A stretch of 64,000 nt of DNA from Prevotella sp. (GTDB taxonomy: Bacteria > Bacteroidota > Bacteroidia > Bacteroidales > Dysgonomonadaceae). The translations under genes and the position numbers were made by a program. Shown here piece after piece: positions 38,509 through 49,906 of this stretch. Location of the stretch: positions 1 through 64,000 of the forward strand of contig JAITVV010000092.1 of the NCBI GenBank assembly GCA_031285625.1, given 5' to 3'. The notes under the pieces are model-generated. The model did not search any database and had not been told where the DNA came from. It worked only from the letters and a program-made list of their open reading frames with translations. Numbering within the stretch: position 1 is the stretch's first letter; the number at the start of each line of letters is the position of its first letter.

Positions 38509-39894
38509 TTATTTATTTTTCACGTTTCTATAAAACTCTTCCAGTAAATTATTATATTTCAGGAATATTTCGTTCGGCGCATATGGTAATATTATCAACT
38601 CCTGATATGCATCGAATAATTGTTTAAGTTTGGCCCTTTCCATTCCCGACTTCAGACTCAACACATTCAGAAACTCATCATCTATATTTTCGGTAGACAT
38701 GTAATAATTCTTTCTTATATAATCCAAAAAATAAGCATGACGCTTTTCTGCTATTGTTTTAAAATCTTTTTTCCTGTAATATAGATTACTGATCGTACTT
38801 AAAAATTCTAACGAGGAGTTTACAGGCGGATTTATAACAGGCACTATGCGTTGTGTCCGTTTTGCCCTAAATATAACAAACAGTAAAAGTCCGGCAAGGA
38901 TAATATACAGAGCTATACGCAATGGTTTGCTATTAAGCATTGCCCTGAATTCGCTGTCACTCTCTCCCATTGCACCCTGCTTCTGGTATTCATCCCATAT
39001 TACCTTACTATTCTTAGGCAGATATGATAGACTCCTGAATGCGAAATCATACTTTTCCGTTTGCAACATATTTACATTTACAAATGCAGTGGGAACCGTA
39101 TGAAGATAAAAATGTCCTTTCCCATATTGCACATCTACAAATACAGTGTCTCCTTTGTTATTTAAAGCCAATGGACGTACAGGTAAAAGACAGCTATCTG
39201 TATTCAATCGTGTTTGCCCATAAAGACTGCCAAAATCGTATTTCTTATTTGGAAAATCAACTAACGAATATATAGTGTCATTGGCAAAATATTCTCTTTT
39301 ACTCTTAATTTTTAATGTATCCATCAAACTAGAGGAGAATATTTCTGAAGCAATGAAAACATTATTACCCAATCCGACAAAATCAAGTAAATATTGTAGA
39401 TCAACTTTATCCAGAAGAAACTTAGAGTTGATAAAAATATACGATGTGGTATCTATCGAAGCCTCAATATCACGGTACCATGCAGTAGGATCTTCCTTGG
39501 TAATTGTATCCGAAATAAAAACCTCTTCTACAGGTATTGTATCTGATTTTATAGAATCTTCATCTTGATAATAATCGTAATAATCCCCATATGCTTCATA
39601 ATCTTTGTAATAACCTGAGCCATAAGAATCGTAATCTTCTTCATATGAGAAGTATTCCTCCATATCTTTTTTCAGATTATTATAGATCGGTCTGCGTGTA
39701 GAACGTATGTGCATTTTGTTGAATATATCACCCAACAATTCGTAAGTAATATACGTTCCGTACGGATCAGTTTTTGTATTATAAAAAGTAGGTTCCCAAC
39801 TTACACCTTTGGGACCTTTGCTGCTTGCATATGATAAACCGAACAGAAGGACGATAATCACAACAATCACTATTATTGTCTTTTTATCCTTCAT
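38509..39894 (-). CDS. DUF4350 domain membrane protein
   Basis: N-terminal TM, PYGTY, WDEY, C-terminal TM then KRTQRIVP and NSSLEF...NLY; canonical cluster position. Confidence 0.8.
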   Translation of the reverse strand: MKDKKTIIVIVVIIVLLFGLSYASSKGPKGVSWEPTFYNTKTDPYGTYITYELLGDIFNKMHIRSTRRPIYNNLKKDMEEYFSYEEDYDSYGSGYYKDYEAYGDYYDYYQDEDSIKSDTIPVEEVFISDTITKEDPTAWYRDIEASIDTTSYIFINSKFLLDKVDLQYLLDFVGLGNNVFIASEIFSSSLMDTLKIKSKREYFANDTIYSLVDFPNKKYDFGSLYGQTRLNTDSCLLPVRPLALNNKGDTVFVDVQYGKGHFYLHTVPTAFVNVNMLQTEKYDFAFRSLSYLPKNSKVIWDEYQKQGAMGESDSEFRAMLNSKPLRIALYIILAGLLLFVIFRAKRTQRIVPVINPPVNSSLEFLSTISNLYYRKKDFKTIAEKRHAYFLDYIRKNYYMSTENIDDEFLNVLSLKSGMERAKLKQLFDAYQELIILPYAPNEIFLKYNNLLEEFYRNVKNK

Positions 39895-40624
39895 GTTTTA
39901 CCATATTATTAAATTCATCCATCCTGCGGTTAATTTCCGAAAACTGTGATTCATCAAGTACAAATTTTCCGTACCATACATAATCGAAGATAAGTGTCGC
40001 CTCCAGAAATTTATTTCGTAATGAATTATTCTTTATTTCATACTGATAACTATAGTTTGTTTTATTCGTACTCCAATCTATAATCTCCTTATCAGACATT
40101 AGCTTCAGGTTTTTCAAATACAGAAAACGTACAACCAAACGATAGTCCCTATTTTTTAAAGCATTCGATATCAATTCATCAAAGTTCATATTATGAACAT
40201 TCTCTGTATAAATGTCAATTTCCGGTGTATCCAGTTTTTTCTTACCCATCAAAGTCCGATAATCCACTCCGATCAATTTCATTATTATGAGGCATACTAC
40301 CAGGATAATAATAAGAACGACAACCACACTCAGCATGCCAGATCCGGCAGCAACACGGAAAAGGCCATTAATAAAATCAGACACAGCATACCAGAACTTA
40401 TCCCACCAGGACAAACTGCGCTCCACTTTTTTATACTGAAAACGTGAATCTTTTTGATATTCTTCTATCTTACTTTTCTCAGGAATACGAAAATCTACCT
40501 CTTTCTGAGCAACAGGCACAGACATTTTGCTAGGATCTGTTTGTGCAAAAACAGTTGAACAAAAACAGAATAAGAGCATCACAAGAATGCTCTTTACTGC
40601 AGATATATTTATTTTTCTTATCAC
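39884..40624 (-). CDS. DUF4129 domain membrane protein
   Basis: DYRLVVRFLYL, KTNYSY, FDYVWYG. Confidence 0.8.
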   Translation of the reverse strand: MIRKINISAVKSILVMLLFCFCSTVFAQTDPSKMSVPVAQKEVDFRIPEKSKIEEYQKDSRFQYKKVERSLSWWDKFWYAVSDFINGLFRVAAGSGMLSVVVVLIIILVVCLIIMKLIGVDYRTLMGKKKLDTPEIDIYTENVHNMNFDELISNALKNRDYRLVVRFLYLKNLKLMSDKEIIDWSTNKTNYSYQYEIKNNSLRNKFLEATLIFDYVWYGKFVLDESQFSEINRRMDEFNNMVKHEG

Positions 40625-40639
40625 CCTAAATATAAAATA

Positions 40640-41524
40640 TTAGTACTGTGTATTCTGATCCGAATTATTTGTTGTACCAATCATATCTATCTCATCATAT
40701 GTACTTATTCCTTCCAGCTTATTCCTATAGCTGAAATAAATAACACCCAAAACAATACACATTATTGGATTAAGTAAAAAGCGTGCAACATAATTGATAG
40801 AATATGTAATATAAAGAAAGATATCACTGGTAAGGAAATCTATCTGGAAAATTGCGCCAACCATCGTTCCATAAACAGGCAATGTGAATATAAAACTTAC
40901 AGCGCCTATAATAAATGAAAAAACGAGCATGATACCCAGAGTTACCCACCAATTATGGTTTATCAGGTCAAAACTCCGTTGGAAAGTTTCCACAATTCCC
41001 CTTCTTTTCTCAACCAAGTATATATAGGAATATAAACAAAGATAAACCGCAGCAATAATACCCGGAATAAAACACAACATACTCCCTATGAATACTAAGA
41101 TAAAGTATATAATACCATACCCGAAAAGAGGTAGAGCCGATTGTTTTACTTTAGCCCAAACTTCTTCATTCTTTACAACACCATCTTCCGATTCAGCATA
41201 GAGTGCCATATAGCACATAGGATACAGATACATCAGATATGCTACTACAGATAAGATAATAAGGCCAACAAAGAATTTCCATGAAAAAATATAAAAAAAC
41301 ACTTCTTGTGGATCATCAAAAGCAGCCATTTCATTCATTCCACCCATAGTGGACATTCTCAATATATCTAAAAAGAAATATATAGCTACTAATAAGAAAG
41401 GGATGAATATTAATAAACCTTTTAATATCACTCCATAATTTTGTTTGATAAAGGATATCGAAGTATCAAAGTTTCCACTAAAATCACGACTCTGATATAA
41501 CCTGATCTTTTTCGGCTGTTCCAT
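40640..41524 (-). CDS. Conserved multi-pass membrane protein of the RDD/SpoIIM/MoxR cluster
   Basis: RDFSGNFDTSISFIKQNY N-terminus, CFIPGI, RSFDL...WW; about 6 TM helices. Confidence 0.75.
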   Translation of the reverse strand: MEQPKKIRLYQSRDFSGNFDTSISFIKQNYGVILKGLLIFIPFLLVAIYFFLDILRMSTMGGMNEMAAFDDPQEVFFYIFSWKFFVGLIILSVVAYLMYLYPMCYMALYAESEDGVVKNEEVWAKVKQSALPLFGYGIIYFILVFIGSMLCFIPGIIAAVYLCLYSYIYLVEKRRGIVETFQRSFDLINHNWWVTLGIMLVFSFIIGAVSFIFTLPVYGTMVGAIFQIDFLTSDIFLYITYSINYVARFLLNPIMCIVLGVIYFSYRNKLEGISTYDEIDMIGTTNNSDQNTQY

Positions 41525-42476
41525 TTAATTTTTTGTTTAAAGAATAAGGATAGTAAATAAAATACCATATAATAAATAAGGCCGACAAGCCTATTATTGC
41601 CAGATTAAAATAAACAGGCATCTCCGTTAAACGGGTGAGGTAACTTTCGATAAATGCTGCAATGAGGAATACAGGAACTAAAGCAACAACAATTTTTACT
41701 GCATCTTTAGCCGCATGTTGCAAAGAAACCATACGGCTGTATGTACCAGGAAAAAGCAAACTATTACCTAATAGCATACCTGCTCCACCTGCTATAATAA
41801 TTGCAGATATCTCGAGTGTACCATGCAGCCAGATAGAAATGGCAGATGAAAACAAAAGTCCCTTCTTGAAAAAGAAATACTGAAATACTCCTAACATGAC
41901 ACCATTAGAAAACATGATATAAACCGTAAACACTGAACCTAATACTCCCAATATGAATGCAAAGAACGCAACTTTTATGTTATTGGTGGATATAAAGAAA
42001 AACATCGGGGCTTCATCAGAACTTTTATATATTGCCATCGGATCACCACTCTCTATATTCTCAAGGGTTTGATTTACATAGCCTGGACCGAGAATAAGAC
42101 TGGCAAAACTAGAATCCTGCTCTAATGAGAATATACCCAAGAGAGCCCCTACAAACATAGCGATGAAAGAATAAAGCAAATATTTGCGACGCTTATACAC
42201 AATAAGAGGAATTTCTTCTTTCCAGAAGCGGAGAAAGCGGCCTTTCTCTTTTTTACGGTATTTGTAGATATTAATAAAATAGCGTCCCGCAAGCTGATTC
42301 AGGTATCTTACTGTTTGCGATTTTGGATAGAATGTACGGGCATAGGACAAATCATCGGTCAGTTCGATGAAATTATCCGCTAGTGTTTCAGCAGGGATGT
42401 CTCTCCCATTTGTTTCATTATCTATCTGCTGCCACTTATCCCGATTCTGTTTAACAAATGCGGCCTCTCTCATCAA
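41484..42476 (-). CDS. Stage II sporulation protein M (DUF95) family membrane protein
   Basis: MREAAFVKQN, DLSYARTFYP, NNIKVAF, NGVMLG, WLHGTLEI, AAFIES. Confidence 0.92.
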   Translation of the reverse strand: MMREAAFVKQNRDKWQQIDNETNGRDIPAETLADNFIELTDDLSYARTFYPKSQTVRYLNQLAGRYFINIYKYRKKEKGRFLRFWKEEIPLIVYKRRKYLLYSFIAMFVGALLGIFSLEQDSSFASLILGPGYVNQTLENIESGDPMAIYKSSDEAPMFFFISTNNIKVAFFAFILGVLGSVFTVYIMFSNGVMLGVFQYFFFKKGLLFSSAISIWLHGTLEISAIIIAGGAGMLLGNSLLFPGTYSRMVSLQHAAKDAVKIVVALVPVFLIAAFIESYLTRLTEMPVYFNLAIIGLSALFIIWYFIYYPYSLNKKLNGTAEKDQVISES

Positions 42477-42600
42477 GCTACAAGTTTGTATTTTTTAGAT
42501 TGTTTTGGCAAATATAGTTCTTTGAGTAAAAAGAATGAAGGAAATAGGCTAATAATCGCACAAAAAAATTAAATTTGTCCTTCATTTCTCATTTGTGATT

Positions 42601-43350
42601 ATGATTATAGAGGTTCAAACAACTCAAAACGTTACAATTGACTACGAAACGGCAGGTATAGGTTATAGATTATTAGCTTATTTCCTCGATTGGGTTATTA
42701 TCTTTATCTGGTATCTGGGTTGGGTTGGTATTATATCTATATTTTCAGAAGTAGGCCTCTGGTCTGCATTTGACGGAAATGGTATAATGATCTTTCTAAT
42801 TATTATAATTGCTTTTCCTATCTTGTTTTATGATTTGCTTTTCGAAACACTGAACAATGGTCAGAGTATCGGTAAAATGATTGTGAAAATAAGAGTAGTG
42901 AATGTGGATGGCACAGCTCCTTCCAGCAGTTCATTCTTGCTAAGATGGCTTTTCAGGCTAGTGGATTTTACTATGACCGAAGGATTTCTGGCGATTATTA
43001 TGATTGCAGTTACAAAGAAATCGCAACGGCTGGGCGATTATCTTGCCGGCACTACAGTTATTGACTTACGACTGAACTCAAAGAATAAAGAATTAAAACT
43101 ATCTGATCTTGATTTTCACGAAGATTATAAAGTTAGCTATAAAGATGTATTAGATAGATTGTCAGACAGGGATATTCAGACCATTACTTCCATTATAGAT
43201 GATCAACGGATGCAATATAATGAATATTTCAACCAGCGATTGGCAGACAGGATAAAGTCTATTACAGGGTATGAATATGATGGTCCGGATAGAATTTTCC
43301 TGCGTAAGATTGTTACAGACTACAATTATCTGGCTGTACAAGAGCAATAA
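42601..43350 (+). CDS. RDD family protein
   Basis: TTQNV, RLLAYFLD, NGQSIGK, QRLGDYLAGTTVI; divergent from the SpoIIM gene. Confidence 0.92.
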   Translation: MIIEVQTTQNVTIDYETAGIGYRLLAYFLDWVIIFIWYLGWVGIISIFSEVGLWSAFDGNGIMIFLIIIIAFPILFYDLLFETLNNGQSIGKMIVKIRVVNVDGTAPSSSSFLLRWLFRLVDFTMTEGFLAIIMIAVTKKSQRLGDYLAGTTVIDLRLNSKNKELKLSDLDFHEDYKVSYKDVLDRLSDRDIQTITSIIDDQRMQYNEYFNQRLADRIKSITGYEYDGPDRIFLRKIVTDYNYLAVQEQ

Positions 43351-43351
43351 G

Positions 43352-44443
43352 CTATTGTATTTCGCCTTCTTTTATCCGTTTCAGGTGGCAAAATAATAAT
43401 TTACCATTTTCATCGCGTAAATGCATACCATTTCCCTCACAGTAGCGAAAATACTTGCAATCCTTACATTCGTCTTTCCTCATCCAACTACGATCTCTGA
43501 ATTGTTGGTAGCGATTTGTCCATATATCCCAGAAATTGTCCTGATAAATATTCCCCTGTATAAAATTTGAACGGAGATTAGGGCACGCAGAAACAGAACC
43601 ATCTACTAACACAGATCCTATCTGAACACCTGCCCTGCAAAAAAAGAAGTTATCCCTAACTTCTCCTTCATAATCCCCGAGAAAACCTTCACAACCATAA
43701 TCTATCTTAATTAAACCTTCCTTACGTGTGGTCTTTATAAAATCAAATAACAGTTTAAACTCAGGAGGTGATAATTGAAGGCTTCTATGCTGTGTAGCCC
43801 GCCCGATAGGAAATACAGTAAAAATACGCCATTCCTTAACACCAGTATCAATAAGAAGTTTTTTCAGATCGTTTAATTGTGGAAAAGTATTTGCAGTAAC
43901 ACATGTTACCACATCATATACGATATCATCAGCTTTGGACAATAAGGAAATAGCATTATATGCCTGACGAAAGCTGTTTTTATTCCCACGCATCAGATTG
44001 TGAGCTTCTTCAAGTCCGTCAAGGCTAACTGTTACAGAACGTAAACCAGTATTTAAGAGACTATTTAATCTTTTTTCAGACAGGAATAATCCATTAGAAA
44101 CCATTCCCCAGGGATATTCCCTTTTGTACAGTTCTTGTCCACAGATTTCCAAATCGTCACGCATAAGCGGTTCGCCTCCTGTGATAACGATCATCGTTTC
44201 GTGAGGATTTACATGGGGTGTTATGCTATCGATTACATTTAGAAAATCCTCAAGAGGCATATCATTTTGTCGCATATCCTTATGGCAATCACTGCCACAA
44301 TGCTTACAAGCCAGATTACATCTCAAAGTACATTCCCAGAAAAGATAATTTAATTTATGAAGAGTAGCAGCATTCTTTTTATGTTGCCGGAATAGTTCCA
44401 GACCAATCCGTTTTCGAAAAGAAATATCTTCTACTCCCATCAA
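43352..44443 (-). CDS. Radical SAM/SPASM enzyme of the rSAM/lipoprotein system (TIGR04133-like)
   Basis: LFWECTLRCNLACKHCGSDC, TGGEPL, YGCEGFLG, SPASM cysteines (CRAG...SAC...CKDCKYFRYCEGNGMH...C). Confidence 0.9.
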   Translation of the reverse strand: MMGVEDISFRKRIGLELFRQHKKNAATLHKLNYLFWECTLRCNLACKHCGSDCHKDMRQNDMPLEDFLNVIDSITPHVNPHETMIVITGGEPLMRDDLEICGQELYKREYPWGMVSNGLFLSEKRLNSLLNTGLRSVTVSLDGLEEAHNLMRGNKNSFRQAYNAISLLSKADDIVYDVVTCVTANTFPQLNDLKKLLIDTGVKEWRIFTVFPIGRATQHRSLQLSPPEFKLLFDFIKTTRKEGLIKIDYGCEGFLGDYEGEVRDNFFFCRAGVQIGSVLVDGSVSACPNLRSNFIQGNIYQDNFWDIWTNRYQQFRDRSWMRKDECKDCKYFRYCEGNGMHLRDENGKLLFCHLKRIKEGEIQ

Positions 44444-44920
44444 TTAATCTTTCTTAGCTGAAGTTATTTTTATTGCTTGTATATCTTTTGTCGTTTCACC
44501 TGCATACCAACCATTGTTTCCATTAGTGAAGCTTGGGTCTTTAAATTCAACAGTTTCTATTTTAGTTTCAAAGGCTCCATTCTCATCACCATCAACATCT
44601 TCTATTTTTAATATAAACTCTTGCGATGTAGGAAACTCTACGACATTTAATTCAAATTTACCTTCACTATCAGTAAAAACACTATCAATATAATACGGTC
44701 GGTCTCCCAATTCCGTTTTATATGATTTACCCAGTACCGTTTTTATCTTTGTTATTGGCGCTTCTGATTCATCCACAATCGTTCCTTTTACCTTGAACTT
44801 AGCAGTTGGGGTACCATACTCTGCTGCACCGCCACCACCACTATCACAAGATGAAAATCCCAGCAACACAAGAAAGAAAGATAGAATTTTAGAATATACA
44901 GATAACATTTTCACTTTCAT
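44444..44920 (-). CDS. Radical SAM-associated lipoprotein (TIGR04134-like)
   Basis: LLGFSSC lipobox, then DSGGGGAAEYGTP, KVKGTI, EDVDGDENG, WYAGE; directly abuts the rSAM gene. Confidence 0.88.
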   Translation of the reverse strand: MKVKMLSVYSKILSFFLVLLGFSSCDSGGGGAAEYGTPTAKFKVKGTIVDESEAPITKIKTVLGKSYKTELGDRPYYIDSVFTDSEGKFELNVVEFPTSQEFILKIEDVDGDENGAFETKIETVEFKDPSFTNGNNGWYAGETTKDIQAIKITSAKKD

Positions 44921-44991
44921 AGTAATAATTTTAAACCATAATCCAGGTATCTATATATTATGATGCAGCATATTCTAAAAAAGTTGCATAT

Positions 44992-46563
44992 CTATCTCTT
45001 TTCCTTAGTTTTTGGTTTTGTTTCCGCCTTCGGTTTAGAAGTTGCTGGTTTAGCTTTTACTGCTGGTTTAGACTTAACCTCTGCTTTCGGGTTCGCTATT
45101 TTCGCCGCTGCCGGTTTTACTTCCGCTTTTGGCTTAGCTACAGCAGGAGTCTTAACTTGGGCCTTAGGCTTTACGTCTGTTTTTAGTTTTGCTTCTGCCT
45201 TTAGCTTAGAAGTTACAGATTTTACAACAGGTTCAGCTTTTTTAGTCGCAGGTTTTGGTTTCACTGTAGTTTTTGCTGCAACTTTCGGAGTTTTTGGCTC
45301 CAACTGTTTTAGTTTTTCTTCAAGCTTTTCGATCTCAGTAGCCTGATTATGAATTGTTGTAAGTAATGCATTCAGTTCCTCATTTTCGATAGAACTAGGA
45401 AACTCTGATTCAACACGTTCTTTGAAATCACTCAATACGTTCATATATGTATTAAAGGCATCATAAGGCGATGAATACGGGCTAAATGGCAATGCATTCT
45501 TGGTTCCCATATAATAAAAATGATCACTCGATTGTAAATATGTCCAATCTTGAAGAATACGTCTGGACTGGCTTAAACTTACACGTTCAGATATTTCGTA
45601 TAATTTATTAAATGCATCTTGTTGCAATGTATTACCTAACCATGCTGAAACATCCTTTTCTTCGCCAACCCACGAAATAGGGTGCATAGAAGAAATAGAA
45701 TCGATTGGTTTCATTGTTTTAAATATCTCGGAAGGCGTAGCAAAACCAATATTCTGTTCAGCCGCAAAACGAGGTAGAACCCGCATAAAATCAAAAATAC
45801 CGGAACTCTTTTTCTGAAAATTACCTAAAGCTTCATAATTCATAAAGAGATTTATAACCTGCTCCTCCTTAGGTGTTGCAGCAATCCAGTTAATAAATTT
45901 ATCAGCAGTTAAAGGATACTCATTCCAATCATAATTTGAAAAACGAGTTGCTATATCATCACTAAATTTAGCATTACGCAATAAGAGTTTCAACTTAGGC
46001 TGTTCAGCAGCCTGATACAGGTAATTGGGGCTTTTCCACCCCAGCGTACGTTTAGCGCCTTCGGTAAGCACCCCAGAAAAACCCATTTCGTATATTAGAT
46101 GAGCAATTTCATCCGAATAGATAAGTTCAGTATTACGGAAAGTTTTTGGTCGTTGGCCAAAGAGACTTTCTATCTTATCGCTATGCTCTTTTACTTGTTT
46201 TTTAAACTCTTCGGGGTCCACCAAAGAAGCTAAAGAATGTCCTTGTGTTTCTGCTAGAAATTCCACACAACCAGTATCGGCCAGCTCTTTAAATCCATCA
46301 ATAACTTCTGGTGCATAAATCTCCATCTGATCTAAAGCTACCCCTGAAATAGAGAAAGCCACCTTAAATTTACCATTATATTCGCGAATCATATCCAGCA
46401 TTAACCGGTTAGCAGGAACATAAGAAACCTCTGCTACCTGTTGCATAAAATCTTCGTTGGCAAAGTCATCATAATAATAATGATCACCGCCTATATTGAA
46501 AAATCTATAACGTTTAAGCCTGTGTGGCTGGTGTATCTGGAAGTAAAAACAAATATTTTTCAT
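44992..46563 (-). CDS. GH57 alpha-amylase-like protein with a long Lys/Ala/Pro-rich tail
   Basis: FQIHQP, SISG, ETQGHSL, FRNTELIY, LQSSDHFYYM. Confidence 0.9.
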   Translation of the reverse strand: MKNICFYFQIHQPHRLKRYRFFNIGGDHYYYDDFANEDFMQQVAEVSYVPANRLMLDMIREYNGKFKVAFSISGVALDQMEIYAPEVIDGFKELADTGCVEFLAETQGHSLASLVDPEEFKKQVKEHSDKIESLFGQRPKTFRNTELIYSDEIAHLIYEMGFSGVLTEGAKRTLGWKSPNYLYQAAEQPKLKLLLRNAKFSDDIATRFSNYDWNEYPLTADKFINWIAATPKEEQVINLFMNYEALGNFQKKSSGIFDFMRVLPRFAAEQNIGFATPSEIFKTMKPIDSISSMHPISWVGEEKDVSAWLGNTLQQDAFNKLYEISERVSLSQSRRILQDWTYLQSSDHFYYMGTKNALPFSPYSSPYDAFNTYMNVLSDFKERVESEFPSSIENEELNALLTTIHNQATEIEKLEEKLKQLEPKTPKVAAKTTVKPKPATKKAEPVVKSVTSKLKAEAKLKTDVKPKAQVKTPAVAKPKAEVKPAAAKIANPKAEVKSKPAVKAKPATSKPKAETKPKTKEKR

Positions 46564-46599: not shown

Positions 46600-47856
46600 T
46601 TATTGACAAAGATTATTGTATATATCTCTTACCTTCTGGCCTGCATATTCCCATTTGATATTATCCACTTCTTCTTTTCCTTCCTTACTCAGAAAATCAG
46701 ACATCGAGTCATATGTACAAATCGAGTAAATAGCATCTGCCATACCTTCTACATCCCAATAATCGATTTTAACTGCCTTATCAAGTATTTCGGCACAACC
46801 TGACTGTTTGGATATAATAGTAGGAATACTACACTGCATGGCTTCCAGAGGAGATATGCCAAAAGGTTCTGATACGGATGGCATTACATATACATCACTA
46901 CGTTTTAACATTTCATATACCTGCTTTCCTTTCAGGAATCCTGTAAAATGAAATTTATCAGACATTCCTTTTTCGGCAACAAGATATATCATACGTTCCA
47001 TCATATCACCGCTACCCGCCATTACAAAACGAATATGTTTTGCCTTTTCCAATACACGTGCGGCTGCTTCAACAAAGTACTCAGGTCCTTTTTGCATTGT
47101 TATACGCCCAAGAAAAGTAACAACCTTATCCTTCCCTTTTTTAGGTTCTATAGCTACTATATCCGCACTTAGCGGCTCCACCGCATTATGAACAGTCGTT
47201 ACCTTAGCCGGATTCTGATGATACTTTTCTATAACCGTATTACGTGTAAGATCACTTACACAGATAATATGATCGGCATAATCCATCCCATTTTTTTCCA
47301 TCTGATAAACCTGAGGGTTTACATTTCCCCTGCTACGGTCAAAATCAGTTGCATGTACATGAATTACCAGCGGTTTTCCCAGAATATTTTTAGCATGTAA
47401 TCCTGCCGGATAAGTAAGCCAGTCATGGGAATGGATAATATCATAATTGTGGCTGCGGGCAATAACTCCTGCAACTATCGAGTAATTATTTATTTCTTCA
47501 AGCAGATTATCAGGGTAGCGTCCTGAGAATTCGATACACCCGAGGTCGTTTGGATGCAGATAATTAAAATCCGCATAAATATGATCTCTCAAATTATAAT
47601 ATTCCTGAGGGTCCATATATTTTGATAATCTTTCACTTACATAGTCCCAATGAACATCTCGCCATGCTACAGGTGTATTACAAGCTCCTATTATTTTTAG
47701 AAAACTTTGGTCTTCGTCTCCCCAAGGCTTAGGAATTACAAATGTAATATCCATATCGGGCTGTAAAGACATTCCTTTAGTCAGCCCATAACTTGCCGTT
47801 CCAAGTCCACCCAATATGTGGGGAGGAAACTCCCATCCAAACATTAATGCTTTCAT
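46600..47856 (-). CDS. GT4 glycosyltransferase (putative glycogen synthase)
   Basis: MKALMFGWEFPPHILGGLG, HSHDWLT, GRITMQKGP, SVSEPFGISPLEA. Confidence 0.93.
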   Translation of the reverse strand: MKALMFGWEFPPHILGGLGTASYGLTKGMSLQPDMDITFVIPKPWGDEDQSFLKIIGACNTPVAWRDVHWDYVSERLSKYMDPQEYYNLRDHIYADFNYLHPNDLGCIEFSGRYPDNLLEEINNYSIVAGVIARSHNYDIIHSHDWLTYPAGLHAKNILGKPLVIHVHATDFDRSRGNVNPQVYQMEKNGMDYADHIICVSDLTRNTVIEKYHQNPAKVTTVHNAVEPLSADIVAIEPKKGKDKVVTFLGRITMQKGPEYFVEAAARVLEKAKHIRFVMAGSGDMMERMIYLVAEKGMSDKFHFTGFLKGKQVYEMLKRSDVYVMPSVSEPFGISPLEAMQCSIPTIISKQSGCAEILDKAVKIDYWDVEGMADAIYSICTYDSMSDFLSKEGKEEVDNIKWEYAGQKVRDIYNNLCQ

Positions 47857-47932
47857 ATATTCTAGTTTCAAGTTGAAAGTGTTATTACAAGAGAAATCTT
47901 ATAATAAACTATGAACTGATTGCTGATTTTAA

Positions 47933-49906
47933 TTAATATTCATCACTAAATGACTTCTGTGTATTCAACGCATTTATCACTCCGGCTACATTTGTAGAAT
48001 ACGAAATCGGGCCATGTCCGAAATAAGGAATACTACCATCATATACGGCAGATAAAGACCCGATTCCATCGTTAGACATCTCCTCTTCGACTCCAATTAG
48101 TAAACGATCCAGAAATGATATACCACTTCGTTGAAATATTTTTTGATACGCTTCCTGATATGCCCTTAACAACCAAGGCCAGGCAGCACCATTATAGGTA
48201 CTGTACAAACGTTCAGACAAAGGCCCTTCACATCTAGGCCTGAAACCAATACTTTTGGGACTTAAAGTACGTATACCTTTAGCTGTTAATAGTTCTTTGG
48301 TTATAATATCAATAATAGATTTACTTAGCCTTTTATCTAGTAATGGATAATCTAAAGCAATTGCTAATAACATATTTGGCCTGACACTCCAGTCAACAAA
48401 ATTACCGACAACATAGTCATATAAATAGCCACTATCGTTAAGAAATACTTCAAGAAATGATGTTTTGGTTATTTCTGCCAATAGCCCCATCTTTTTTTCT
48501 AATTTAGCATTTCCCTGATTATGGGCTGTCTCTTCATTAAATTTAAGTGCATTATACCAATACGCATTAATCTCAACCAAGCATCCTGTACGGGCAACTG
48601 TATAATAACCATCGGCCGATTTGTTATGCATCCAACTCGGATGCCCCTTCGTATTATCAACACTTAACAAGCCATTTGTTAAAGAAGTCAGATTTGGATG
48701 ATTTCCTTCCTGGATAAATGCAACTACTTTATTTACAAGTTCGGCATACTTTAGATAATAACGCTCAGTATCATGGTTTGCAAACTTTTTCAAAGCACGT
48801 AATAACCATAACAAAACATCACCATCTCCTATATCTTTCAAAAAGCCGGTTATTGGCTTCCCTTGCATAAATTCTTCTATAGCTGGGATAGCAGTATCCA
48901 CAGCTTCTTCAAAAGCATCACTTTTCCCTATACCTAAAGTTAAACCTTCTAAAGCCATAAATTGTTCTCTGGCCCGGACTTCACCCCATGGATATCCGTT
49001 TAAAAGGTAAAGTTCTTCTTTACTTGGACGAAAATAAAACTGATGAGCAGAATTCTTAAGGCAGTTATAGAATGAAGATCGAGGTGTTCTTTCTTTAATA
49101 CCTTCTTCAAAAAGTGTTATTAGCTTACTTGTATCTGCATGGACATCACTTGCCGAAAATATAATCGACTCTCCCTTTTGAATAGGTAATTCGAAATAGC
49201 CGGGCACATATAAGTCCTCTTTATATGGTAACCCCTGATCCATATCCTGTAAATATTCTATTCCTTTATACCAGTTAGGGTCAAAAATAAAATCCACAGG
49301 CTTGTTGAATTGCATAAACAGTTCGGGATAGCCGCTATACATACACATACTGATACCATTCTCCACTTCCTTATAACCATGTTCGGCTACAGAATTTTCT
49401 TTTGTAAGCTGATTGATATCACGGAATGCGAGAAACGGCTTAAAACGCATTGTTGTAGGAGAATGTGCATCCAGTAGCGTATAACGGATAAATATCATAT
49501 TCTCTTCTAACGAAAACATTTTCTCCTTCGAAAGGATAACTCCTCCTACCCTGTATATCGTACGAGGCAGAGAATCGCAATCGAACTCCCGGATATACTT
49601 ATGCCCCATCGGACTATAGTTATTCCCATCATATTTATGAATACCCAGATTGAAATCTGCGCCATGTTGTATTACAGTCTCATCAAAAGACGATAGAAGC
49701 ACATGGTTGGTATTTCCTAATTTAGGAACTGGCATAACGAGTAAGCCATGCTGCTTACGGGTATTACACTCTACTAATGTCGTACAATGATATGCTCCTC
49801 GCCTGTTTGTTCTCAAAATCTCTCTATTAAGGGAATATTCAAGGTTAACCATTCGGGACTTATCAAATTTTAAATAGGCATTTGTTTTTTTATAATTGTA
49901 ATCCAT
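47933..49906 (-). CDS. Glycogen debranching enzyme-like protein (GDE_N plus GH133-type amylo-alpha-1,6-glucosidase domain)
   Basis: CNTRKQHGLL, EDLYVPGYFE, VEINAYWYNAL, RPN, GIRTLSP, YNGAAWPWL. Confidence 0.88.
   Translation of the reverse strand: MDYNYKKTNAYLKFDKSRMVNLEYSLNREILRTNRRGAYHCTTLVECNTRKQHGLLVMPVPKLGNTNHVLLSSFDETVIQHGADFNLGIHKYDGNNYSPMGHKYIREFDCDSLPRTIYRVGGVILSKEKMFSLEENMIFIRYTLLDAHSPTTMRFKPFLAFRDINQLTKENSVAEHGYKEVENGISMCMYSGYPELFMQFNKPVDFIFDPNWYKGIEYLQDMDQGLPYKEDLYVPGYFELPIQKGESIIFSASDVHADTSKLITLFEEGIKERTPRSSFYNCLKNSAHQFYFRPSKEELYLLNGYPWGEVRAREQFMALEGLTLGIGKSDAFEEAVDTAIPAIEEFMQGKPITGFLKDIGDGDVLLWLLRALKKFANHDTERYYLKYAELVNKVVAFIQEGNHPNLTSLTNGLLSVDNTKGHPSWMHNKSADGYYTVARTGCLVEINAYWYNALKFNEETAHNQGNAKLEKKMGLLAEITKTSFLEVFLNDSGYLYDYVVGNFVDWSVRPNMLLAIALDYPLLDKRLSKSIIDIITKELLTAKGIRTLSPKSIGFRPRCEGPLSERLYSTYNGAAWPWLLRAYQEAYQKIFQRSGISFLDRLLIGVEEEMSNDGIGSLSAVYDGSIPYFGHGPISYSTNVAGVINALNTQKSFSDEY

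Follow-up and report, generated by a model that had tools for sequence, protein, structure and literature searches.

A radical SAM/SPASM enzyme and the invariant Tyr-Gly site of its lipoprotein neighbour: a candidate backbone-splicing system in Bacteroidales

What does a radical S-adenosylmethionine (SAM) enzyme do when its gene closely follows that of a small lipoprotein? This question is raised by a 64,000-nt stretch of DNA from Prevotella sp. (hereafter the window; positions 1 to 64,000 of contig JAITVV010000092.1, assembly GCA_031285625.1), which encodes a radical SAM enzyme with a SPASM domain next to a lipoprotein. An earlier note on the same DNA observed an exposed Glu-Tyr-Gly (EYG) motif in the lipoprotein and proposed that the enzyme splices the protein backbone there. 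The observation is confirmed, and its interpretation is partly supported. Our results suggest that (i) the two genes encode a putative enzyme–substrate pair, which is well supported by comparative evidence; (ii) the enzyme very probably rewrites one invariant Tyr-Gly site of the lipoprotein before export; and (iii) the chemistry may be the splicease reaction at X-Tyr-Gly, which is our leading hypothesis and which we put slightly below an even chance.

Both members of the pair belong to named NCBIfam families, as had been claimed. In a hidden Markov model check, the enzyme matches TIGR04133 (rSAM_w_lipo) with 604.4 bits (E 5e-182, cut-off 425) over profile positions 1–350 of 350, and the lipoprotein matches TIGR04134 (lipo_with_rSAM) with 134 bits (E 4e-39, cut-off 39.8), both above the curated cut-offs. 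The family features (i.e. a CxxxCxxC motif with a Cys-rich SPASM region, and an adjacent lipoprotein gene) are present, and the window locus is a plain member with the same gene order and tight coupling. Pfam assigns Radical_SAM (PF04055) and SPASM (PF13186, residues 269–330) to the enzyme, which has ∼35 amino acids (aa) ahead of the cluster motif; no Pfam family matched the window lipoprotein.

The lipoprotein runs from its N-terminal start MKVKMLSVYSKILSFFLVLLGFSSC through DSGGGGAA and EYGTP to TAKFKVKG. The lipidated Cys, the linker and EYGTP, with the EYG codons (E34-Y35-G36) at 44821–44813 on the minus strand, stand in the sequence exactly as described before; lipidation of Cys25 is predicted from the lipobox. 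An AlphaFold2 model (mean predicted local distance difference test, pLDDT, 80.1) contains a signal helix at residues 3–23, an unstructured stretch at residues 26–34 (pLDDT <50) and strands within residues 41–151, with YGTP just ahead of strand 1. Because the linker is unstructured and the first strand begins after the motif, the YGTP site is predicted by this model to be accessible. Foldseek matches of the beta-sandwich are transthyretin-like (E 2e-5 to 1e-3) and include the SusC N-terminal extension 9hfj, 3e8v, 2g2n and a teneurin domain. Two side observations concern the same protein. A D108-x-D110-G-x-x-N114-G115 loop in the beta-sandwich (44575–44598, minus strand) resembles a calcium-binding loop and is conserved among 142 family members (D108 97%, D110 93%, N114 90%, G115 94%). 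A related strain, represented by a contig from a public run, is missing 9 nt at 44829; these make up three codons in the Gly-rich linker, in keeping with its variability.

Conservation of the YG dipeptide in homologues was one of the three points on which the earlier note had staked its proposal in advance, and the motif is nearly invariant. Among 20 homologues and the lipoprotein of a second pair in the window genome, M1, F22, C25, Y35, G36, P38, G46, T83, G87, F89 and Y139 are invariant, with Y35, G36 and P38 kept in 21/21 aligned sequences. A profile search of 1.84 billion representatives returned 3466 proteins at E ≤ 1e-3 (1342 at E ≤ 1e-10), and motif counts were taken on the best 150 of these 3466. 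YGxP is present in 141/150 and occurs twice in 15 of the 141; in none of the nine members without it is Tyr replaced by Phe or Trp. The residue before Tyr in the 156 motif instances is mostly Glu (128), then Met (17), Ala (8) and Leu, Cys or Ile (one each), while the residue after Gly varies (Thr, Val, Ser, Met, Cys, Ala and others) and Tyr lies 1–26 aa from the Cys. In an alignment of 142 representatives, each <200 aa, Y35 and G36 reach 96% and P38 97%, and A40 is also conserved at 96–97%; the YG dipeptide recurs in unrelated partner proteins (see below).

The same alignment places mean conservation lowest in the linker (0.25) and higher in the signal region (0.49; G21 98%, F22 85%, L20 82%, C25 97%) than in the domain (0.42), and Gly at −4 from the lipobox Cys is found in only 55/992 lipoprotein-like open reading frames (ORFs) of the window genome. 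Because the signal region is more conserved than the domain and Gly −4 is rare genome-wide, the signal peptide appears to carry family-specific information, which makes it a candidate leader-like recognition helix. Throughout the window genome, YGxP occurs 215 times in 2,048,698 ORF residues (1.05e-4 per residue), and within 35 aa after the Cys it occurs in 4/992 lipoprotein-like ORFs. Two of these four belong to the genome's two TIGR04133 genes as partners; the others are a sulfatase-like ORF and a probable non-gene. The motif is thus far beyond chance.

We also compared the proteins that accompany TIGR04133 enzymes elsewhere. Scanning species-representative genomes with a five-enzyme alignment returned 595 relatives, of which 79 loci with 82 enzyme genes were kept. 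Partners were counted where an enzyme gene has 700 nt or more of readable upstream DNA, which holds for 75: a same-strand lipoprotein-like ORF lies upstream of 70, and YGxP or YGxxP follows the Cys in 69. When the six exceptions were read by eye, five proved to have a YGxP protein elsewhere in the locus: (i) a Fibrobacter metagenome-assembled genome (L014) has two tandem enzymes, and lipoproteins with YGVP, YGTP and YGAP flank the second; (ii) two Paludibacteraceae loci (L069 and L075) encode a 260-aa partner with a signal peptide and YGCP and without a lipobox Cys; (iii) the partner at L084 is downstream (...IIAQ-YGAP); and (iv) L090 has YGMP without a Cys accepted by the lipoprotein rule. 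The sixth (L056) has no partner.

The partners are structurally diverse. They include (i) beta-sandwich lipoproteins, encoded by two or three tandem genes in L036, L066, L073 and L077; (ii) low-complexity, disordered lipoproteins of 60–120 aa with up to three motifs (...DM-YGIP-VM-YGMP-...EM-YGTP...); and (iii) small lipoproteins that end a few residues past the motif. Across these partners the motif stands 1 to ∼90 residues from the Cys and is often C-terminal. The motif harvest comprised 98 ORFs, among which four false positives were recognised by eye (three ∼600-aa glycosidase-like ORFs and one junk ORF). Of nine relatives with scores under the family cut-off (333–371 bits), seven have readable partners, and all seven partners read ...AAC-YG[TVAS]P; the other two are cut by contig ends. 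In this Cys-Tyr-Gly subfamily the Tyr directly follows the lipobox Cys, as in the second pair of the window genome. No YG lipoprotein was found near three more distant enzymes (L100, L101 and L102; genomes G723, G618 and G493; 222–247 bits). These three enzymes are 324–327 aa long, have TC rather than GS after CxxxCxxC and form a long branch inside the TIGR04133 clade. As far as these sequences go, the motif appears to track the enzyme and not the protein fold. Because such diverse proteins beside TIGR04133 enzymes carry it, X-Tyr-Gly-x-Pro is, with good confidence, the element that the enzyme recognises or modifies.

Which reaction might take place at this element? Spliceases are radical SAM/SPASM enzymes that, in the passages available from the papers cited here and below, remove the equivalent of tyramine (C8H9NO) from X-Tyr-Gly, so that an alpha-keto-beta-amino amide remains; the first systems have Met or Leu as X, which can vary otherwise, and Gly directly after Tyr is obligatory and reported as the hallmark of the splice site (PMC11414181, PMC9811515). 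Type I spliceases require a small Y protein; hundreds of binary pathways do without it, and there the enzyme is activated by a leader helix (PMC11414181). Splice tags of type I, natural or engineered, have the sequences ...LYGLPI and ...MYGVVFPG (PMC10533398); further splicease sources drawn on are PMC11002830 and PMC10849128.

The TIGR04133 system resembles both types of splicease (PlpX/PcpX type I with PlpY; binary RhaX/RcsX/RasX type II). Its enzyme likewise combines radical SAM and SPASM, and its partners, like splicease substrates, carry one to three X-Tyr-Gly sites with variable X, often followed by x-Pro. At the window locus an X-Tyr-Gly substrate (EYG, residues 34–36) is encoded beside the enzyme. 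As in the binary systems, no separate Y protein or recognition element for RiPPs (peptides made by ribosomes and modified after translation) is encoded among the locus neighbours, in agreement with the previous remark that no RiPP recognition element (RRE) or PlpY-type gene is visible. A plasmid search with the enzyme found a Nostoc 'nif11-class peptide radical SAM maturase 3' of TIGR04103, which we take to be the PlpX family. Its Nif11 precursor ends in ...GGRGSIAL-YGLP-PELF, and a 71-aa ORF occupies the PlpY position. Since this precursor ends in LYGLP-PELF, a type I site shares the X-Y-G-x-P form of the lipoproteins. The two systems differ in their substrates, which are Nif11/NHLP-type leader peptides in spliceases and Sec/lipobox lipoproteins, many with a folded beta-sandwich, in the TIGR04133 system. 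They also differ in X, which is mostly Glu here and Met/Leu in type I, and the recognition element here would be the signal peptide.

Phylogenetic analysis is consistent with this comparison: the enzyme does not group away from the spliceases included and joins a PlpX-type-containing clade, albeit as part of a separate, long-branched clade. Tree 1 comprised 40 rows, i.e. 13 TIGR04133 enzymes, six of the Cys-Tyr-Gly subfamily, three distant relatives, six TIGR04103 enzymes (the Nostoc enzyme and five more), and GDL-motif maturases, an Agathobacter radical SAM enzyme, MftC, TIGR04053, TIGR04347, PqqD-fused and other SPASM enzymes. All 22 TIGR04133 rows form one clade (100/100), and a starred branch with 97/97 unites it with the clade of TIGR04103, GDL-motif maturases and the Agathobacter enzyme (99/95). 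Tree 2 comprised 39 rows, from which the long-branched L007 and the near-duplicates L010, the second copy of L014, L092, L102, L113 and P0170 had been dropped, and to which NirJ, PqqE, AcgM, a Rhizobium enzyme, a Bacillus enzyme and a partial anaerobic sulfatase-maturating enzyme (anSME) had been added; the join was kept in this tree, at 87/94. The splicease rows of both trees are type I enzymes named TIGR04103 in databases, with none of the 27 validated pairs as such. GDL-motif maturases (TIGR03913) fall in the same wider clade, closest to the PlpX-type enzymes, and share the WE(I/C)T..CN..C.HCGS signature; they are paired with 56-aa DUF1843 peptides, which are cytoplasmic and lack a signal peptide, and one of the three read has a YG. 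Two plasmid loci, of Aureibacter (L105) and Azospirillum (L107), encode such maturases beside two or three tandem 56-aa DUF1843 peptides, and the Aureibacter locus also has a methyltransferase. The anSME row is a 301-aa C-terminal part only. The anSME gene of the window genome is split over the ends of contigs C57 and C92 (L121 and L120), an assembly break and not a broken gene.

Several observations weigh against a splicease assignment. (i) The enzyme scores 120.2 bits against the PlpX-type model TIGR04103 (cut-off 725) and is not a member, although this model covers type I spliceases only, and it scores at least as high against TIGR04053 (127.5 bits) and AhbD (heme b synthase; 121.8 bits). 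(ii) The join with the PlpX-type-containing clade weakens to 87/94, not starred, in tree 2, where the long-branched partial anSME falls in the same unresolved node with unsure placement. (iii) TIGR04133 forms a separate clade on a long branch (1.0–1.5 changes per column). (iv) In the trees, the PlpX-type enzymes have the GDL-motif maturases as their nearest relatives, and because their DUF1843 peptides are mostly without YG, substrate type is not uniform in the wider clade. (v) X is Glu in 128/156 instances, against Met/Leu in natural type I sites, and a DYG site of RcsA was not spliced in the passages available (PMC11626197). (vi) In the Cys-Tyr-Gly subfamily, to which the second pair belongs, the lipidated Cys would take the place of X, which puts in question whether Lgt and LspA would tolerate a rearranged backbone there. 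(vii) The searchable papers contain no mass-spectrometric or genetic data for any family member. The enzyme also stays below the cut-offs of the anSME model TIGR03942 (53.7 bits, cut-off 349) and the GDL-motif maturase model TIGR03913 (109.5 bits, cut-off 592). A PDB sequence search with the enzyme found no splicease structure, its best matches being cytosylglucuronate decarboxylase, SkfB, anSME (4k37, E 2e-13), MoaA and PqqE. A Protein Atlas look-up gave only 'Radical SAM protein' clusters (Bacteroidota, Fibrobacterota and Myxococcota) and no functional lead. A complex prediction of the enzyme with the full pre-lipoprotein scored 0.29 against a mark of 0.32 and counts neither way.

The enzyme could instead act on the Tyr of X-Y-G-x-P by other radical chemistry, e.g. 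beta- or ring-hydroxylation, desaturation, epimerisation, a Tyr cross-link or Calpha-Cbeta side-chain cleavage, and leave the lipoprotein unspliced. This is a serious possibility, if on the improbable side. The motif and co-occurrence evidence applies to it equally; SPASM reactions are many, and matches to MftC, PqqE, AhbD/NirJ and sactipeptide maturases are similarly strong; TIGR04133 is a distinct long-branched clade; and a Tyr that is strictly kept and never becomes Phe or Trp fits any phenol-dependent reaction. On the other hand, the residues before Tyr (E, M, A, L, C, I, K) and after Gly (T, V, S, M, C, A, Q, even G or P) vary, and the third position of YGGP has no C-beta, so that a fixed cross-link partner beside the Tyr is unlikely. 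The obligatory Gly after Tyr is, moreover, the reported hallmark of a splice site. We favour splicing over other Tyr chemistry because only Y, G and P are fixed, the flanks vary and the Tyr is never replaced by F or W.

Alternatively, YGxP might not be the site of the enzyme at all and could be a structural, sorting or processing element (e.g. one that caps the beta-sandwich or directs surface export or cleavage), with the enzyme acting elsewhere. In family members with the domain, the motif does lead into A40 and F/Y42, conserved positions where strand 1 begins. The N-terminus is also under other constraints, since acidic residues predominate in the family's post-Cys linker (385 D/E vs 75 K/R; at least two acidic residues among the first six in 74/141 members), which in this resembles the export signals that direct Bacteroidetes lipoproteins to the surface and vesicles in the passages available (PMC5080379, PMC6222051). 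Such a signal is doubtful in the window lipoprotein, because only one (Asp) of the six residues after its Cys is acidic. The motif is also found, however, in domain-less, disordered partners, in two or three copies, at C-termini and at varied distances from the Cys; in the window genome it is nearly confined to the enzyme-adjacent lipoproteins (two of four hits among 992 ORFs, the other two of which look spurious); and the nine of 150 members that lost it keep their fold-forming residues. We thus consider this explanation unlikely. That the adjacency is meaningless, with the pair a passenger of the upstream glycogen-type operon or the enzyme serving an unrelated cofactor pathway, is barely credible: the stretch between the pair and the GH57 gene shows no promoter- or terminator-like signal, and L056 and the long-branched L100–L102 lack a partner, but the pairing is kept across Bacteroidales, Fibrobacter and Treponema in differing neighbourhoods, the glycogen genes adjoin it in 2/82 loci, and enzyme and lipoprotein genes are spaced by 3 nt.

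Returning to the splicease reading, a plausible sequence of events can be outlined. Because it lacks a signal peptide and depends on SAM and reduced Fe-S clusters, the TIGR04133 enzyme would act in the cytoplasm on the unexported pre-lipoprotein, at the Tyr of E34-Y35-G36-T37-P38. The signal-peptide helix (...LLGF..C) is still attached to this precursor, which makes it the obvious candidate for an activating helix; it would probably serve as the recognition element in place of a RiPP leader or PlpY. Tyramine (C8H9NO, 135.07 Da) would be excised at X-Y-G to give an alpha-keto-beta-amino amide, and because the motif lies in an unfolded segment, the modified precursor should remain Sec-competent. 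Export by Sec and processing by Lgt, LspA and Lnt at Cys25 would follow, and the end product would carry an electrophilic ketoamide close to the membrane anchor. In the passages available (PMC11626197, PMC9811515), ketoamides are described as a type of electrophile inhibitory to serine and cysteine proteases, and a protease-inhibitor role of the modified lipoprotein is speculation.

A partial analogue is known for the order of these steps. The SPASM enzyme anSME/ChuR modifies one residue of a short motif in an export-bound protein, in the cytoplasm and before Sec. The window enzyme matches anSME at the PDB level and would likewise act on a short motif of an export-bound protein. The difference is that anSME targets C/S-x-P-x-R, not X-Tyr-Gly-x-Pro, and produces formylglycine.

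The distribution of the system is patchy. At E ≤ 1e-60, TIGR04133 is present in 4/401 genomes of a phylum-wide sample, all four in the order of the window genome, and in 94/401 genomes (85 above the cut-off) and 66/236 genera of a sample within that order. Two other genomes of the same genus were searched, and one has it (G553) and the other lacks it (G127); a TIGR04133/TIGR04134 pair is present in Bacteroides thetaiotaomicron, which served as the control genome. The adjacency of enzyme and partner spans Bacteroidales, Fibrobacter and Treponema in otherwise different neighbourhoods, which is also the range of the system. Plasmid pTS1 of Treponema saccharophilum (L106), for example, has an annotated TIGR04133/lipoprotein pair (...LTSC-YGMP) beside an invertase gene. 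This is a patchy accessory system, and its occurrence outside Bacteroidota (Fibrobacter and Treponema) suggests transfer among gut and rumen bacteria.

The window genome contains a second pair on contig C21 (L006), with the lipoprotein at 1120–1476 and the enzyme at 1477–2532, both on the plus strand. The enzyme (351 aa, TIGR04133 482.7 bits) abuts the stop of the lipoprotein, a 118-aa CarboxypepD_reg-type protein (...AFQAC-YGAP) that is too divergent for TIGR04134 and passes the Pfam CarboxypepD_reg models PF13715 and PF13620. Weak TIGR04134 matches (21–22 bits) at C14:11818–12036, C52:198588–198767 and C80:87318–87560 lie inside ORFs of 695–1000 aa and are probably CarboxypepD_reg-like domains of large outer-membrane proteins.

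At the window locus, the pair is the end of a minus-strand series of five head-to-tail genes (debranching-type, GT4/GT5, GH57, lipoprotein and radical SAM/SPASM enzyme; Table 1), and the convergent gene of an RDD-family protein has its 3′ end at 43350. The previous claim that the lipoprotein and enzyme genes abut without a gap holds for their close adjacency and not for the exact spacing. The lipoprotein stop TAA (44446–44444) is followed directly by TTG 44443 and then by ATG 44440; because the enzyme homologues begin MGVE, ATG 44440 is the likelier start, and it leaves a spacer of 3 nt. The 71-nt gap to the GH57 gene is indeed without a terminator-like hairpin, and no promoter-like signal was found within this spacer, which lacks the TAnnTTTG box that we take to be the Bacteroides −7 element. 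The pair may thus be co-transcribed with the glycogen-type genes at this locus without a functional link. A functional tie to the glycogen-type operon was considered and rejected, since among the 82 loci compared (L009–L090) GH57 and GT4 genes adjoin the pair only in the two closest (L012 and L013), i.e. by recent synteny.

Table 1. Coordinates of the genes, motifs and domains discussed, in window positions.
Feature	Position	Strand	Basis or remark
Glycogen debranching-type gene	47933–49906	−	
GT4/GT5 glycosyltransferase gene	46600–47871	−	
GH57 enzyme gene	44992–46563	−	Upstream neighbour of the lipoprotein gene
Spacer between lipoprotein and GH57 genes, 71 nt	44921–44991	−	
Lipoprotein gene, 158 aa, presumed substrate	44444–44920	−	ORF; NCBIfam TIGR04134 'radical SAM-associated putative lipoprotein', no Pfam family
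Signal peptide and lipobox, residues 1–25 (...LLGFSSC), predicted; Cys25 = 44848–44846	44846–44920	−	Sequence; helix in model
Flexible linker DSGGGGAAE, residues 26–34; E34 = X of X-Y-G	44819–44845	−	pLDDT <50
YGxP motif Y35-G36-T37-P38, presumed modification site	44807–44818	−	Conservation
Beta-sandwich domain, residues 41–151, transthyretin/CarboxypepD_reg-like	44468–44800	−	AlphaFold2 model and Foldseek
Radical SAM/SPASM enzyme gene, 362 aa from ATG 44440 (363 aa from TTG 44443)	43352–44440	−	TIGR04133
CNLACKHC, i.e. CxxxCxxC for the radical SAM [4Fe-4S] cluster, C41/C45/C48	44297–44320	−	Invariant in 5/5 aligned enzymes
SPASM region, seven invariant Cys (C250/C268/C286/C325/C328/C334/C351), auxiliary Fe-S clusters	43388–43693	−	Alignment

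Some neighbouring features were also noted. The C-terminus of the GH57 enzyme (44992–45340, minus strand) is a Lys/Ala/Pro-rich tail of ∼115 aa (...KTPKVAAKTTVKPKPATKK...), which can be likened to histone H1-like or polyanion-binding tails; a 128-aa ORF at 44960–45346 on the plus strand mirrors this tail on the opposite strand and is probably no gene. On the other side of the pair, 39884–43350 encodes the RDD-family protein (plus strand), a SpoIIM-like membrane protein (minus strand) and two membrane proteins without Pfam families (minus strand), and this cluster appears to have no relation to the pair.

Public sequencing runs give a weak hint that the pair is expressed. Near-identical sequence is present in runs labelled as termite or insect gut, and a 597-nt contig from an RNA library (44244–44827) bridges the junction of the lipoprotein and enzyme genes. 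A small metatranscriptome covers only 44121–44682. A 5.9-kb contig from a transcriptomic run and a 9.8-kb contig from a run guessed to be RNA span convergent genes and, for that reason, may represent DNA; the contigs may stem from DNA carry-over, do not mark the ends of transcripts and carry no information on the stretches that they leave uncovered.

In NCBIfam release 20.0 both TIGR04133 and TIGR04134 are 'hypothetical equivalogs' without a function, and a literature search found no study of either family; one literature match for a family accession proved to be a mistyped accession of a type IX secretion system (T9SS) domain. The search also found no paper joining spliceotides and lipoproteins and, in the passages available, none linking a splicease with a Bacteroid- name. 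The splicease survey of Scott et al. (Chem 2022) tested 27 systems and predicted 939 (PMC10533398), and it mined radical SAM/SPASM genes beside YG-rich ORFs across 189 genera (PMC10849128), as far as the passages available go. Because of this mining strategy, the survey may already list the TIGR04133 family.

The pair itself is thus already catalogued and the window locus is an ordinary member, so that the value lies in the site and its chemistry rather than in the genes. The prediction, that one known tripeptide becomes 135.07 Da lighter, is sharp and cheap to test. Should the reaction be a different one, the family would still represent a tyrosine-directed protein modification that is new and whose site is known. 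If the enzyme does prove to be a splicease, (i) backbone splicing would extend beyond secreted peptide natural products to the routine maturation of envelope lipoproteins in dominant gut bacteria; (ii) this would be the first Sec/lipobox signal peptide that doubles as a RiPP-type leader; and (iii) the pair would offer a compact two-gene tool for placing ketoamides in exported proteins.

More broadly, we tentatively propose, as a conjecture that may well fail, a splicease lineage in Bacteroidales (about one-quarter of the sampled genomes of the order), sporadic in Fibrobacter and Treponema, that would excise tyramine before export, use the signal peptide as its leader and yield ketoamide-bearing anchored proteins. 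If this is true, these bacteria would make membrane-anchored, in many species probably surface-exposed, proteins or lipopeptides with an alpha-ketoamide warhead beside the lipid anchor; for the Cys-Tyr-Gly subfamily, it would be the lipidated residue that turns into a beta-amino acid. Genetically encoded and tethered, such products would inhibit the serine and cysteine proteases of gut ecosystems or trap them covalently.

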